A stretch of DNA of 42,269 nucleotides from Patescibacteria group bacterium (GTDB lineage: Bacteria > Patescibacteriota > Minisyncoccia > 2-02-FULL-40-12 > GWA2-44-9). This document shows, piece by piece, positions 3,378 to 42,269 of this stretch (positions are counted from its first letter, which is position 1; every line of letters begins with the position of its first letter). The notes beneath the pieces are model-generated. The model searched no databases. It was not told the DNA's origin and worked only from the letters and a program-made list of their open reading frames with translations. The DNA lies in contig JBBTRD010000013.1 of assembly GCA_038065335.1 (NCBI GenBank), forward strand, positions 1 to 42,269, given 5' to 3'. The translations under genes and the position numbers were made by a program.

Positions 3378-3986
3378 ATGGCCATAGACCGAAGGAGCAA
3401 GAGAAGTAACACCGCCAGAAAGCTCTCGCGCGCGAAAATCCAGGAGTACCTTGACGCTGCCATTATTAGGAGAGGACGTGAGGCTAACGCTATCGCCGTC
3501 CAAAGAGGACTCGAGGCCGAGGAACTCGTCGAGGAAGCGATTCTGCTTCTAAAGTCTCAAGGTCGCGTACAGTGGTACCACCGTTGTGAACGCTGGGGCG
3601 AATTGGATTTGGCCGGTATGGATTACCTGATTATGTTCACCGGCTCCATCGCGATTTTTTCTTTGCAAGCCAAGGCTTCCGAAGTAGGAAAGAGAGTCCA
3701 CATCGCTCAATACGGTGATCGCACTCCCTGTGTAGTCATGTATCCAGACGATACCGTCGAAATCATGGCCGACAAGATTCTGATGACCGTGTTCCCACGG
3801 TTTTACGACGAGGGGGGAAGTTACGACGAAGAAGAATATCAGCGTTTCGACCCGCTTGATGTCCCTCCTCCAGAAGGGACGGCGCCTGAAATAATCGAAG
3901 ACGATGGACAAACGAAACGGTTTAGGTCACCAAGCCTAGACATTATAGGCGAAGCAATAAGAAAGGGGCTTGCCGTCAACGAGTGA
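3378..3986 (+). CDS. Hypothetical protein, possible PD-(D/E)xK (YraN/Hjc-like) nuclease fold
   Basis: The ORF track gives 3324..3986. I prefer ATG 3378 because GGGAGG lies 5 nt upstream. The pattern GLEAEELVEEAILLLKSQG...RCERWGELDLAGMDYLIMF...SLQAKAS fits a G..E...GE.DL...QxK nuclease core. Acidic C-terminal tail; GC-richer than the flanks. Confidence 0.55.
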   Translation: MAIDRRSKRSNTARKLSRAKIQEYLDAAIIRRGREANAIAVQRGLEAEELVEEAILLLKSQGRVQWYHRCERWGELDLAGMDYLIMFTGSIAIFSLQAKASEVGKRVHIAQYGDRTPCVVMYPDDTVEIMADKILMTVFPRFYDEGGSYDEEEYQRFDPLDVPPPEGTAPEIIEDDGQTKRFRSPSLDIIGEAIRKGLAVNE

Positions 3987-4008
3987 CCCATCAAGCCAGA
4001 ACCACACA

Positions 4009-4040
4009 AGGCCCCGCCATGGCGGGGCCTCTTTAAATTT
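4009..4040 (+). terminator. Rho-independent terminator of the 3378..3986 cassette
   Basis: Perfect palindrome AGGCCCCGC-CATG-GCGGGGCCT followed by CTTTAAATTT. Confidence 0.7.
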
Positions 4041-4061
4041 AAAAAAAACGATTCCAAATTT

Positions 4062-4149
4062 TGGCGGAGGCGGCTGGATTCGAACCAGCGGTACCTTGCG
4101 ATACACTTGCTTTCCAAGCAAGCGCACTAGACCACTATGCGACGCCTCC
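4062..4149 (-). tRNA. tRNA-Ser (anticodon GGA), class II with long variable arm, CCA encoded
   Basis: Minus strand reads GGAGGCG...CTTGC-TTGGAAA-GCAAG...GGTTCGAATCC...CGCCTCCGCCA. It has a 7-bp acceptor stem, the anticodon loop TTGGAAA, a long extra arm and a T-loop. Confidence 0.9.
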
Positions 4150-39107: not shown

Positions 39108-40214
39108 TTATCCATAACGCTTTATGCTTTGTAAAATCCCTAGCCCGACCAGAAGCGACCAGAGACTGCTCCCGCCATAACTGATGAATGGAAAAGGAAT
39201 TCCGGTTACGGGCATCAAGCCCAGGTCTACTCCCGAACCAACAATGGCGTGAGTGGCAATAATAATCGTCAACCCAATTGCAAAGAGTCTTCCAAAATTA
39301 GACGTCATTCGACTCGCAATATTCATAATCCGCGAAATTAAAAAAACAATAGCCGCTAGAATGGCGCCGATACCAAAGAGGCCGAATTGATCGGCTGTGG
39401 AAGCAAACACAAAATCGTTATACGGTTCGGGCAAGAAACCATTGGATGTCTGGGGGCCCTTCCCCCAACCGCTTCCAAACCAGTGTCCCGCTCCAATGGC
39501 TATTTTTGATTGAATAAGATTGTAGCCGCTGCCATACGGATCGCTCCCGGGATTCAAAAAAGAGACAACCCGTACTTTTTGATATGGTTTTAAGACGAAG
39601 TTCCAGCCGATACTGCCGACTATCAACAATAAAACCGCCAAAACAAACAATTGTCGACGATTAAGACCGATCGCGACCAACATTCCAATCCAAACAAAAA
39701 ACATGATAATGGCCGAGCCTAGATCGGGTTGAATAAGAGTAATACCGATTGGAATCATGCAGTAGAGCCCAGAAACGATAATATGGCGATAATCATTAAT
39801 ATGAATATGACGTTGGGAAAAATACTTAGCCATCAAAACAACTAACGCTAGTTTTACGAACTCGGCCGGCTCGAAAGTTAACCCCCCGATAGATATCCAC
39901 GCTCTCACGCCCCGAATTGACTGAAACAAGAATGGCATCATCAGCAATACGACCGAAACAATATACAGGACAAACACTGCCACAGAATTATTTTTCAAAT
40001 ACCGATAATTAAAAAACGAGAAAATAGCCATCATAATCACACCTAAAACCACGAAAATAACCTGTTTCCAAAAATATGGATTTTGGGTCCCGCCAATGCC
40101 GTATAAGTTAAAAAGGCTAAACAAACAAAGCGCCACCACAGTGGCGAAAAGCGGTCTATCAATACCAGAGAAGTACTGCTTAATAATACTGCTGAAACTT
40201 TTCTTGAGTTCCAT
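39108..40214 (-). CDS. SEDS family peptidoglycan polymerase (FtsW/RodA/SpoVE)
   Basis: 368 aa with about 9-10 TM helices, QPDLGSA, FLPEPYNDFVF and a C-terminal PFISYGGSS. Confidence 0.85.
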   Translation of the reverse strand: MELKKSFSSIIKQYFSGIDRPLFATVVALCLFSLFNLYGIGGTQNPYFWKQVIFVVLGVIMMAIFSFFNYRYLKNNSVAVFVLYIVSVVLLMMPFLFQSIRGVRAWISIGGLTFEPAEFVKLALVVLMAKYFSQRHIHINDYRHIIVSGLYCMIPIGITLIQPDLGSAIIMFFVWIGMLVAIGLNRRQLFVLAVLLLIVGSIGWNFVLKPYQKVRVVSFLNPGSDPYGSGYNLIQSKIAIGAGHWFGSGWGKGPQTSNGFLPEPYNDFVFASTADQFGLFGIGAILAAIVFLISRIMNIASRMTSNFGRLFAIGLTIIIATHAIVGSGVDLGLMPVTGIPFPFISYGGSSLWSLLVGLGILQSIKRYG

Positions 40215-40986
40215 TTCGTTTTAAAAAATTAGCGTTATTAAACACATTAGTATTAACTTCGGTCTGAATACGAGCATCAGCCGGTAATACAAATGGCCAC
40301 GTAACTTTAATCGAGCGATTAGTCTGCGAAAGAAACGTCTGAAAGTTGGTCCTATTCGTCGCGATGATTGCCCCCGAACTATCAGTTACGACCATATTGA
40401 CATCAATTGTATCAAAATCAAAATTAGTATTATTTGTAATCACCGCTTGATAAATAGTTTGACCCATATCATGCATGGTTGCTTCTCTGGTAATAATGAA
40501 AGTAATATCTTGCGCCATAGTCACTTTCTGCCAATCAACGCTTTTAATATCCAGTTGGGCCAAAGAGTCATCAGACACACCTTTTAATGAGGTCTGGACG
40601 ATATATTTTGTCTGACCCGGCAAAATATAGAACGAGTTATTTTGACGTGAAATTTCTTTCCTCGTTGAATCAACGAGGACTAGATCGTAATCGGTTGAAT
40701 CGGCGCCATAATCAACGTTGGGATTGTAGACTAGCGCCGCCATATCATAATCTCCAATCGGTGTTTTTATTAGTCGCACATCCTGAACAACTAGTGCTTG
40801 GATCGATGAAGCGCAGGCCCTACCACACGCCACCGTCCCACAATCGACGCCTTCTTCTTGGCCATTCCTGATGTTATCACTGCAAGTTGGTCGATTTTTA
40901 GACCAATAGCTTCCACCCATAATCACAAGAATTATAAGAACATAGATACTACTAATAATAAGTCGTTTCGTCGTTCGATTAAGCAT
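40180..40986 (-). CDS. Hypothetical membrane-anchored protein with a Cys-rich module
   Basis: N-terminal TM segment, CSDNIRNGQEEGVDCGTVACGRAC, then a beta-rich region. It overlaps the SEDS gene start by 35 nt. Confidence 0.6.
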   Translation of the reverse strand: MLNRTTKRLIISSIYVLIILVIMGGSYWSKNRPTCSDNIRNGQEEGVDCGTVACGRACASSIQALVVQDVRLIKTPIGDYDMAALVYNPNVDYGADSTDYDLVLVDSTRKEISRQNNSFYILPGQTKYIVQTSLKGVSDDSLAQLDIKSVDWQKVTMAQDITFIITREATMHDMGQTIYQAVITNNTNFDFDTIDVNMVVTDSSGAIIATNRTNFQTFLSQTNRSIKVTWPFVLPADARIQTEVNTNVFNNANFLKRNGTQEKFQQYY

Positions 40987-40996
40987 AATCTATCTT

Positions 40997-41026
40997 AACA
41001 AAAGAAAAGGGGGCTTGGTAGCCCCC
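40997..41026 (-). terminator. Rho-independent terminator after the small zinc-ribbon ORF
   Basis: Minus strand reads GGGGGCT-ACCA-AGCCCCC followed by TTTTCTTTTGTT. Confidence 0.7.
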
Positions 41027-41044
41027 GGACCACATCGATGGCCG

Positions 41045-41356
41045 TCACCGAAACATTGAGGAGATAGGTACCGATGCGCAAAGATAGGCTTCCAACTTTC
41101 TTCGCACCGCCCGTTGACGCGGACCACCCAGAAATCCGTCAGCACAACACATCCGACAGATAAACATGGCCCGCCCTTGCCTGAACACCTGCTTGCCCTC
41201 ACAATGAGGACACAGAATTGGCAGTCTCTTTAACTGCCTCTCCACGTAAATCTGCCCAAAAACATCCCGTTGCATTTGAAAACGTGCGCGCTCTAACGTG
41301 TACATCAAGATCTTCTTCAGCCTCTTGCTTTGTGAGGGCGTGTTACGGACTACCAT
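41045..41356 (-). CDS. Hypothetical small zinc-ribbon protein (CxxC...CxxC)
   Basis: 103-aa ORF with CPHCEGKQVFRQGRAMFICRMC in a GC-richer patch between the 5S cluster and a terminator. Weak SD; it could be a gene remnant. Confidence 0.4.
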   Translation of the reverse strand: MVVRNTPSQSKRLKKILMYTLERARFQMQRDVFGQIYVERQLKRLPILCPHCEGKQVFRQGRAMFICRMCCADGFLGGPRQRAVRRKLEAYLCASVPISSMFR

Positions 41357-41451
41357 ACCAATTCAACCTTTCTGGCCGTAAGTCGGCCGTTATAAGTGCT
41401 GGAAAGATACTACCATATTAAGATTTTTTGTAAAACACAAAAACCAGTGAT

Positions 41452-41569
41452 CTGGCGGCACCCCGCCTGCTGGCTTGGGCATTTCGTCGCCTTCGCTCCT
41501 CAACTACCAACTTCTAAATACCGCACCTTCAGTGCTAGGGCGCCGAACGGCGAAAGTAGGCATCCGCCA
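41452..41569 (-). ncRNA. 5S-length (~118 nt) unit with 5S-type termini but a non-5S interior
   Basis: Minus strand starts TTGGCGGATGCC and ends GGTGCCGCCAG, followed by the same ATCACTGGTTTTTGTGT tail as the outer 5S. It contains AGCGAAGGCGACGAAATGCCC, which resembles the outer 5S. Confidence 0.3.
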
Positions 41570-41597
41570 ACTGGTTTTTGTGTACACAAAAACCAGT
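41570..41597. terminator. 28-nt perfect palindrome directly after the outer 5S 3' end
   Basis: ACTGGTTTTTGTGTACACAAAAACCAGT, checked base by base. It is the centre of a 73-nt inverted repeat (41549..41621). Confidence 0.6.
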
Positions 41598-41600
41598 GAT

Positions 41601-41995
41601 CTGGCGGCTACCTACTTTCGCCGGATGAGTCCGACTATCATGGGCCTTAAAGGATTTCGTCCCGCACTAAAACAAGCATATGCCACTTCATGCTTCCGCA
41701 TGAGGCATAACAGAGGATGCTTGTTTGGTGTCGGGACTTCGCTTCTGAGCCTACCCCGCACCGAATGAACAACCAGTCATAATCACTGTAGGGCAGCTAC
41801 CTACTTTCGCCGGATGAGTCCGACTATCATGGGCTCCGCGAGATTTCACTTCTGAGTTCGGGATGGGATCAGGTGGAGCACTCGCGACATAGCTACCTTA
41901 CACTAACTACGACACTAACTTTGTTCATTCTGGTGCGGGGTTCGGTCCGCCAACTGGCGGAGGGATCAGGTGGATTATCTAAAGATAGCCACCAA
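41601..41995 (-). rRNA. Outer 5S-like gene interrupted by three hairpin insertions, one of which carries a complete 5S
   Basis: 5' half GGTGGCTATCTTTAGATAATCCACCTGATCCC..CCGAAC and 3' half CTCAGAAGCGAAG..GAAATCCTTTAAGGCCCATGATAGTCGGACTCATCCGGCGAAAGTAGGTAGCCGCCAG. Helices I and II are compensated relative to the inner copy. Confidence 0.5.
41786..41903 (-). rRNA. rrf: 5S ribosomal RNA (canonical, inner copy)
   Basis: Minus strand reads GGTAGCTATGTCGCGAGTGCTCCACCTGATCCCATCCCGAACTCAGAAGTGAAATCTCGCGGAGCCCATGATAGTCGGACTCATCCGGCGAAAGTAGGTAGCTGCC. The termini pair as helix I. Confidence 0.88.
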
Positions 41996-42112
41996 GCTAA
42001 TGCTTTTGTTTTCTTAAATATTTTAGTTAGAGAATAAACATTTACTGTCTCGCTTCGCGAGATCTCCCGAAGGGAGACATTAAGTTACCAAGAAAACGTC
42101 AATCAAACGATT

Positions 42113-42269
42113 ACTCAAAATTATGACTGATTAGTAGTTCTCGGCTAAGCACGTCACCGTGCGTACACCTGAACCCTATCAACCTCGTAATCTACAAGGA
42201 GTCTAAGATATCTCATCTTGGGGCCCGTTTCGCGCTTATATGCTTTCAGCGCTTATCGGCACCGAACAT
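42113..42269 (-). rRNA. rrl: 23S ribosomal RNA, 3'-terminal ~157 nt (continues beyond the window)
   Basis: Minus strand reads ...GCTGAAAGCATATAAGCGCGAAACGGGCCCCAAGATGAGA...GTTGATAGGGTTCAGGTGTACGCACGGTGACGTGCTTAGCCGAGAACTACTAATCAG, which matches the conserved domain VI end. Confidence 0.9.

Follow-up and report, generated by a model that had tools for sequence, protein, structure and literature searches.

A 5S rRNA gene nested within a second 5S rRNA gene in a Patescibacteria genome: a candidate case of 5S gene replacement in progress

What does it mean for a complete 5S rRNA gene to lie inside another one, and which of the two would then serve the ribosome? The question is raised by one end of a 42,269-nt contig from a Patescibacteria group bacterium (JBBTRD010000013.1, assembly GCA_038065335.1; "the window" below is this whole contig), where, reading the minus strand behind the 23S rRNA gene, the two halves of one 5S gene (the outer copy) enclose a base-paired stem that carries a second 5S gene (the inner copy) at its tip. 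A preliminary description, made from the sequence alone, had proposed this arrangement: on the minus strand the nesting of a complete canonical 5S in a second 5S is real, the coordinates of all nest elements stand, and the insertion site indeed falls exactly between CCGAAC and TCAGAAG of the outer copy. We favor the reading, with a probability of roughly 0.55, that a 5S replacement is under way, with the inner copy as the working 5S and the outer copy as its displaced, co-transcribed shell.

The identity of the two copies is evident from related loci. A scan of 185,579 species genomes for the 3' domain shared by both copies, along with contigs fetched via a conserved neighbor gene, yielded about 30 such loci (L numbers below) from Yanofskybacteria-like Patescibacteria, and these hold two 5S sequence types, O and I. 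Type O follows the pattern CTTGG[TC][GA]GCTAT...GC[CT]GCCAGA (CTTGGTGGC...GCCGCCAG) with the leader AAAGCATTAG or CCAGTGA, and type I the pattern TAAGG..GCTAT...GCCCTAC (TAAGGTAGC...GCTGCCCTAC) with the leader GTCGTAGTTAGTG and the trailer AGTGATTATGAC. Either type may be the sole 5S: type O in L012, L013, L017, L025, L030, L032, L035, L042, L044, L047, L050, L051, L053, L054 and L055, and type I in L026, L033, L027, L029 and L031. The outer copy of the window is of type O, orthologous to the sole 5S of about 12 sister lineages (L032, L012, L035, L042, L044, L047, L050, L051, L053, L054, L055 and L025), and has a type-O leader, AAAAGCATTAG, which also precedes the plain type-O genes of L042, L044, L047, L050 and L053; the inner copy is of type I and is flanked by its own native leader and trailer. 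Thus, the outer copy appears to be the resident and the inner copy the incomer, and we infer from this that the inner copy is replacing the outer one.

The nest recurs in relatives, in both polarities and in various states of preservation. The preliminary description had suggested a search for the same architecture with scoring of covariation, and this was fruitful: L024 and L043 have the same nest of type I in type O at the same position, with a loop-C hairpin (longer in L043), a rod-like hairpin at the same site as in the window, and a nest stem that is compensated and unbroken. In L037 the nest is reversed. Here the outer copy is a type-I gene with seven GC-rich hairpin or long insertions, and its loop C has given way to a canonical type-O 5S (76.3 bits) that brings along its own leader/trailer helix and a GCCCGT/ACGGGC clamp. 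Two further loci retain leftovers: L014 has, behind a type-I 5S, an orphaned 3' stem arm of the nest together with CTCAGAAGC and the rod apex, the outer 3' domain being gone; L028 has scattered pieces of type O behind its type-I 5S, with GGTGCGGGG-GTAGGTCGTCGCCAGAC at their end. In both, the 3' arm of the nest stem is among the surviving relics. L011 and L039 are additional 5S mosaics. The occurrence of the same nest, the reverse nest and decayed leftovers among relatives argues for replacement rather than for two working copies. When lineages are ranked by the identity of their neighboring protein to that of the window, the nest is present in the population of the window (94-100%) and in L043 (70%), and is absent from seven lineages at 80-71% and from others at 69-59%; overall, three among about 16 sampled lineages bear it.

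Several additional observations concern these relatives. Homologous GC-rich hairpins are inserted into the 3' domains of the outer copies of L037 (CAYTBY010000012, ~3470-4126, minus strand) and L043 (3790-3900), namely TCCGCC...GGCGGACAGG after GGCC, and CCCCGACG...GTCGGGG plus AGCCGAC...GTCGGCT after CATGATAG, despite 5' halves of different types (I and O, respectively). The UCCGCC/GGCGGA stem of these insertions is also the stem of the loop-C hairpin of the window, and the 14-mer GGTAGTTGAGGAGC is common to the L037 outer copy and window positions 41507-41520. L043 has 5S-like scraps beyond its outer 5S, both upstream (GGAGGTCCCACCTC..CGAAC, 3390-3440) and downstream (3925-3990: GGCCGCCAG, a hairpin, and ATCACTGGTTTTT, with a matching CCAGCGAT leader); these may be what is left of a still older, third 5S layer surrounding the nest. 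L014 and L032 both belong to MGJZ01 (Yanofskybacteria RIFCSPHIGHO2_02_FULL_50_12), a single metagenome-assembled genome (MAG) with two different 23S-5S ends: L032 has a plain type-O 5S, and L014 has a type-I 5S with remnants of a shell of type O. Either this genome has two rRNA operons, which would be unusual for the Candidate Phyla Radiation (CPR), or the bin mixes two strains.

The nest is not an assembly artefact. Its 398 nt are 100% identical in L002, L003 and L004 and differ by 1 nt in L001 and L040, these being five separate assemblies from the Hainich groundwater wells H41, H43, H51 and H52; the nest is located ~1.9 kb into the contig in L001-L003, and the neighboring RodA protein is encoded on at least 22 public contigs from the Hainich wells. 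A metagenome scan with the rod pattern found two additional Hainich contigs only, and the junction pattern had zero matches in viral contigs. Diverged nests come from other datasets, namely L024 (a MAG of study SRP193066) and L043 (the middle of a 157.9-kb Joint Genome Institute contig). A chimera assembled from co-occurring populations with type-O and type-I 5S genes would have had its ingredients at hand, as both types are present in Hainich MAGs (L013, L017 and L030 versus L033); moreover, the window nest is 270-670 nt from the contig end, and scaffold gaps lie directly downstream of the nest in L001 and L002. We nevertheless consider such a chimera extremely improbable: the junctions CCGAAC/CCCGCACC and GGGGTAGGC/TCAGAAG are unique and absent from plain genes, and the arms that they introduce are mutually complementary; at least five separate assemblies agree, with the gap region uninterrupted in L003, L004 and L040; the homologous nests of unrelated datasets include one in the middle of a 158-kb contig; and a swap at the shared 39-43-nt repeat would mismatch the helix I pairs, whereas the assembled order is self-consistent. 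As the Hainich strains are 100% identical over most genes (including those for RodA, NYN and fn3), the identity of the nest among them is uninformative regarding constraint.

The inner copy is a regular 5S by all accounts: its match to RF00001 covers model positions 1-120 with a score to be compared with a gathering score of 38 (Table 1), every consensus pair of the clade is present, and it folds as a 5S. The arms of the nest stem pair by 9 bp, one bulged A and 8 bp, Watson-Crick throughout and GC-clamped. The entire 395-nt RNA folds at -175.6 kcal/mol, as against -119.6 +/- 5.8 for shuffled sequences (z-score -9.6; 0 of 100 shuffles equal it), and in the predicted structure the outer helix I, the nest stem, the leader/trailer helix and the inner helix I form a single long rod with the correctly folded inner 5S at its tip. 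The preliminary description had likened the enclosing stem to the processing stems of rRNA operons and to those of intervening sequences (IVSs), and it does behave like a selected stem: across the window, L024 and L043 it shows three compensated positions and zero broken pairs. Together with the leader/trailer helix, the compensated alignment columns in the three nests are 85/248, 87/246, 90/243, 100/233 and 105/228, the last two belonging to the leader/trailer pairs, which are retained in all three nests and also flank the type-I genes that are the sole 5S at L033, L026 and L014. The linker behind the stem varies in sequence by lineage (TAGG, CTTTG, CAGG, CCATG). The conserved nest stem and leader/trailer helix would fit a processing stem for the inner 5S, regardless of the role of the outer copy.

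Table 1. Features of the 5S nest and its surroundings at the end of the window, in minus-strand order
Feature	Coordinates	Strand	Support or remark
23S rRNA gene, 3' end (last 159 nt)	42111..42269	-	RF02541, 122 bits, model positions 2751-2925
23S-5S spacer, 114 nt	41997..42110	-	ends in type-O leader AAAAGCATTAG
Outer (type-O) 5S, 5' part: helix I, II and III 5' strands	41962..41996	-	aligned to 13 canonical clade 5S genes
16-nt hairpin TCCGCCAGTTGGCGGA in outer loop C	41946..41961	-	fold -10.2 kcal/mol, z-score -4.4
Outer CCGAAC, final outer bases ahead of nest (helix III bulge)	41940..41945	-	junction as in L024 and L043
Nest stem, 5' arm (CCCCGCACC A GAATGAAC)	41923..41940	-	pairs with 41754-41770
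Inner type-I 5S, native leader (..GTCGTAGTTAGTG)	41901..41922	-	pairs with inner trailer
Inner canonical 5S rRNA gene, type I	41788..41900	-	RF00001, 72.9 bits, E 1e-13, full length
Inner 5S, native trailer	41771..41787	-	pairs with inner leader
Nest stem, 3' arm (GTTCATTC GGTGCGGGG)	41754..41770	-	pairs with 41923..41940
Linker TAGGC (5 nt), then resumed outer helix III 3' strand TCAGAAGCGAA	41738..41753	-	
79-nt rod hairpin in outer loop B	41659..41737	-	fold -38.7 kcal/mol, z-score -6.4
Outer 5S 3' domain: helix II 3' strand, helix V, loop E, helix IV, helix I 3' strand	41599..41658	-	
Downstream 5S-derived element	41430..41598	-	fold z-score -4.55

The outer copy is less easily recognized. 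An Rfam scan of window positions 41200-42269 at E up to 10 gave zero partial 5S matches to the outer halves in the unedited sequence, and neither an intron nor any other Rfam family was detected there, although the same tool does detect group I introns in the 23S genes of relatives; the sole extra matches, of miRNA type and to the long downstream hairpin, were dismissed as spurious. The outer copies, with insertions removed, were threaded on an RNAalifold consensus of 13 canonical clade 5S genes, which has the standard 5S fold with 12 covarying pairs. The L024 outer copy keeps 33/33 pairs; that of the window keeps 7/7 in helix I, 3/6 in helix II, 8/9 in helix III and 11/11 in helices IV/V; that of L043 keeps 2/7 in helix I and has lost 3 nt from GAAAGTAGG, on the strand of loop E and helix V; and that of L037 has complete cores, with an intact helix I (GGCGAC/GTCGCC) whose 3' strand lies 166 nt further on. 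In helix II of the window (compare 6/6 in L024) the 5' strand has diverged (CTTTAGATAAT versus GCTGAAGGTGT in relatives), and the damage is mostly confined to one 12-nt patch, GCTGAAGGTGTC to CTTTAGATAATC, with six substitutions and one deletion and an unchanged partner strand. Freed of its insertions, the window outer copy has no 5S-shaped fold (z-score -1.55), its minimum free energy structure lacking helix II; the L024 outer copy treated likewise and the inner copy both fold as 5S. Loop C (CCCAUCCCGAAC) is not intact in the window either, as the 16-nt hairpin stands in place of 3 nt and only 6 nt separate it from the nest; this hairpin, TCCGCCAGTTGGCGGA, is identical in L024 and has a longer, nested-palindrome version in L043. 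The outer copy in the window itself looks non-functional as a 5S.

Viewed across lineages, the outer copies form a decay series, from the intact one of L024 via that of the window to the eroded one of L043 (11 substitutions at 70 clade-invariant columns) and the relics of L014 and L028; the helix II patch in the window, the erosion in L043 and the relics would speak for a pseudogene, and the 0 of 70 invariant columns changed in L024 and L037 against one. This bears on the preliminary description, which had found the outer copy unlike random decay, citing a compensated helix I, a replaced helix II and an identical 38-nt 3' domain. Helix I of the outer copy is indeed compensated, with all 7 pairs formed and the variant GGTGAC/GTCGCC in L024. 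The alternative helix II pair, CTTTAGA/TTTAAGG, was rejected as comparative evidence: in the homologous register 3/6 pairs form, and the proposed pairing depends on a shifted register, on two G-U pairs and on a base taken from the start of helix V; a C in strain B (L001, L040) breaks it, and L024 and L043 keep the canonical register. With an uncompensated 12-nt patch, half of helix II unpaired, no 5S fold and a decay series in relatives, the claim of absent decay is not supported.

In the 3' domain the two copies have 43 nt in common, with one mismatch. A 38-nt identity had been noted before; as a similarity it stands and even extends, but as a sign of constraint it does not, as the helix IV loop reads ACTCA in both copies of the window and ATTAA in both copies of L024. 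The near-identical 3' domains thus reflect concerted evolution in each genome, and not independent conservation: the identical 38-43 nt are there because the 3' domains are homogenized within each genome. Behind the outer 3' end lies a 5S-derived element. Its parts are a trailer hairpin, a 22-nt stretch antisense to the 5S 3' end (41548-41569) and two or three small hairpins, and it ends in a second direct copy of the 5S 3' end, GGTAGCCGCCAGA, with a U-rich trailer (41430-41459). The antisense copy, 30 nt past the outer 3' end, is complementary to 41602-41623 at 20/22 nt; in terms of repeats, the inverted one (I2) has 22 nt at 91% and the direct one (D2) 25 nt at 100%. The element has a terminator-like score, and a promoter-like site (41434-41407) follows. 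Versions of ~95-170 nt follow the plain 5S genes of L042, L044, L047, L049 and L055, and the element is also found in L001 and L040; its small hairpins show compensated changes between lineages, and it has no Rfam entry. It could be an operon terminator, a processing duplex, or a sensor of the free 5S 3' strand. The outer 3' end, being complementary to this conserved anti-5S element, would thus have a reason to persist.

The replacement that we favor can be pictured as follows. A resident type-O 5S would have acquired hairpin-type insertions, with a complete type-I 5S and its own leader/trailer helix at the tip of the insertion in the helix III bulge. The operon transcript would run from the 23S gene through the entire nest as a single precursor, in which the outer helix I, the nest stem, the leader/trailer helix and the inner helix I are predicted to stack as one rod. 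Double-strand-specific processing, presumably of the RNase III or RNase M5 kind, would then free the inner RNA to be the ribosomal 5S of the cell. The outer copy, probably redundant as an rRNA, would at most be an extended processing stem and a part of the terminator region, and its shell would erode over time at lineage-specific rates. The parts expected to be retained are the nest stem, as it would be required for presenting the inner 5S, and the 3' domain, as it would be homogenized with the inner copy through gene conversion and is complementary to the conserved terminator-like anti-5S element downstream.

Several features of the outer copies weigh against this scenario. At the 70 clade-invariant columns, L024 and, despite its seven insertions, L037 have 0 substitutions, and the window has 2; the insertions are placed at loops, bulges and helix ends, with none inside helices; outer helices I and III differ between the window and L024 by compensated changes (GGTGGC/GCCGCC versus GGTGAC/GTCGCC, and CTGA/TCAG versus CCGA/TCGG, respectively); and the rod, for which a shell has no role, is ~90% identical between the window and L043 though the neighboring protein is only 70% identical. 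By their invariant columns, the outer cores are cleaner than a long-dead pseudogene should be. Both states of the helix I and helix III pairs are also found in plain type-O genes, and the rod is kept elsewhere as an apex in L014 and with a different apex and a compensated base in L024 and L011. One alternative is that the outer copy is a second functional 5S-type RNA, either split once the inner 5S has been cut out, with its halves paired via helices I-III, or expanded by hairpins; the cell would then have two kinds of 5S, or a 5S-derived RNA predicted still to bind uL18 and uL5. It gains from the complete pairing and 5S fold of the L024 outer copy, from the unmutated invariant columns of L024 and L037, from compensated helices I (GGCGAC/GTCGCC) and II (GAGAG/CTCTC) of the L037 outer copy, neither of which is found in its inner one, from the positions of the insertions (loop C, helix III bulge, loop B and helix ends), and from the Halococcus ribosome, which carries a 5S with a 108-nt insertion (PMC7530397). 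We still hold it to be unlikely: in the window, the uL18 site (helix II) is disrupted and the RNA without insertions lacks a 5S fold; loop C is interrupted in all nests; in L043 the pairing of helix I is lost and the loop E/helix V strand is 3 nt shorter; the outer copy has vanished from L014 and L028 and is hence dispensable; excision of the seven insertions of L037 would give pieces of 8-26 nt; and one plain 5S suffices in most sister lineages.

Another alternative concerns the origin of the nest and is compatible with the replacement model: a mobile, IVS-like hairpin with a 5S as cargo, inserted, or copied by recombination, into the loop C/helix III region of a resident 5S, would spread horizontally among related CPR lineages and drive 5S gene turnover. 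Such a cassette would explain the patchiness of the nest (missing in 11 sampled lineages at 80 to 59% neighbor-protein identity, seven of them closer to the window than L043), its two polarities (I-in-O and O-in-I), both of which use the same region of the host gene and have GC-clamped junctions, the common termini CCCGCACC...GGTGCGGG of the nest stem and the rod (the rod ends, (G)TCCCGxCACC...GTGCGGGA, resemble those of the nest stem), and the 92-98% likeness that the window and L043 show in inner 5S, stem and rod, as against outer 5' halves differing at ~10/36 positions; 23S IVSs and CPR rRNA insertions are likewise known as sporadic and horizontally spread (PMC11270868). The nest lacks an ORF (open reading frame), any signature of an intron or ribozyme and a clear target-site duplication, three separate insertions travel together, which transfer of an entire allele by homologous recombination would explain equally well, and the motif CCCGCACC is not enriched elsewhere in the 42-kb window, all of which leaves the cassette a doubtful proposition. 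A genome-wide palindromic repeat, akin to miniature inverted-repeat transposable elements or repetitive extragenic palindromes, was rejected: with at most one mismatch, CCCGCACC has 28 matches in the window against 23.9 +/- 4.7 expected, and one exact copy outside the 5S region. Equally discarded was an origin by Campbell-type single crossover of two 5S genes, which would yield tandem chimeras and not a nest. The boldest combination, also improbable in our view, would have the 5S genes of this clade as self-replacing cassettes that, each with its processing helix, travel on an IVS-like hairpin into loop C/helix III of the resident 5S in either direction and leave the invaded copy functional in an expanded or split form; if true, this would be a first on two counts, as intervening sequences in a bacterial 5S and as an rRNA gene nested in its own paralogue.

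How does the favored replacement compare with known systems? Mechanistically, the closest analogue is the RNase III-cleaved IVS of 23S rRNA: as there, the nest is a hairpin insertion on a long basal stem in a loop or bulge of its host, without an ORF, sporadic among close relatives and with a stem kept through compensated changes. It differs in its host, a 5S, for which no IVS has been described, in the tip of its hairpin, a complete second rRNA gene, in a cleavage that is predicted only, and in a host copy that is seemingly decaying instead of working in fragments. Among 5S genes, the closest precedent is that of Halococcus morrhuae, in which a 108-nt insertion stays in the mature RNA (PMC7530397). 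Both have a large insertion with canonical 5S elements still recognizable; however, the Halococcus insertion projects from about base 108 of a mature, ribosome-bound 5S that is the sole type present, whereas the present insertions occupy loop C, the bulge of helix III and loop B, include an entire 5S gene, and are accompanied by a canonical copy. The insertions in CPR 16S and 23S genes occur in the same organisms and the same operon, and are likewise patchy and located at the tops or bases of stem-loops, but those in 5S here lack an intron signature or ORF. Finally, the outer copy resembles disrupted or duplicated rRNA pseudogenes in being interrupted, redundant, and eroded or a relic in several lineages, but unlike these the nest is orderly, stem-bounded and conserved across lineages, and the core positions of L024 and L037 are almost unmutated.

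The nested arrangement is new, though its kind, an insertion in an rRNA gene, is not: the preliminary description knew of no earlier account of a 5S within a 5S, and a search of the published literature found none. Insertions are a hallmark of CPR 16S and 23S rRNA genes, and 5S had been thought free of them. Brown et al. reportedly described insertion sequences and introns in the CPR 16S and 23S genes in 2015. Such insertions and introns were documented further by Tsurumaki et al. (2022, 2024; PMC9297842, PMC11270868). Insertions are present in 48% of CPR 16S and 82% of CPR 23S genes, and the 2024 survey, which used cmsearch, covered 645 CPR 5S genes with none having an insertion of 100 bp or more (PMC11270868). 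A standard covariance-model search reports the inner copy only, so that loci of the present kind are invisible to surveys. For annotation, a 23S-5S gap of 200 to 1600 nt in Paceibacteria-type MAGs may serve as a cue for 5S shells. The locus and its relatives offer stages for studying the replacement of an essential structural RNA gene, and as a series they bear on how hairpin insertions build up in a redundant rRNA and on the parts of its precursor that 5S processing requires. A stable outer RNA would amount to a 5S that is naturally split or expanded, and would allow a test of how much change the central protuberance of the ribosome tolerates.

Further features were noted around the operon. 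Right behind it lies a local hypervariable island (window 40180-41429, compared with L001-L004): among the Hainich strains, the gene of an FxLYD-like membrane protein (40180-40986) has 94-97% identity and the adjoining intergenic region with a small Cys-rich ORF (40987-41429) about 77%. The scaffold gaps of L001 and L002 sit at the edge of this island. The 23S-5S spacers of many relatives contain one or two small ORFs (~70-95 aa, no assigned family) at L032 6800-7000, L043 3090-3420 and L044 3060-3370, and in L047, L050, L051, L053 (two copies) and L054. These are bracketed by a ~20-bp inverted repeat, GGTAATATCCTGTGAGGAGG / CCTCTTCACAGGATATTATC, the left arm of which gives a Shine-Dalgarno-like GAGGAGG; their sequences vary between lineages, and window positions 41997-42110 have no such ORF. 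Group I introns with LAGLIDADG homing endonuclease genes interrupt the 23S genes of L001-L003 (234-827), L043 (20-1986), L035 (331-590), L051 and L055, directly ahead of the part of the operon that the window includes. That the contig of the window terminates within its 23S gene is probably due to this variable region.

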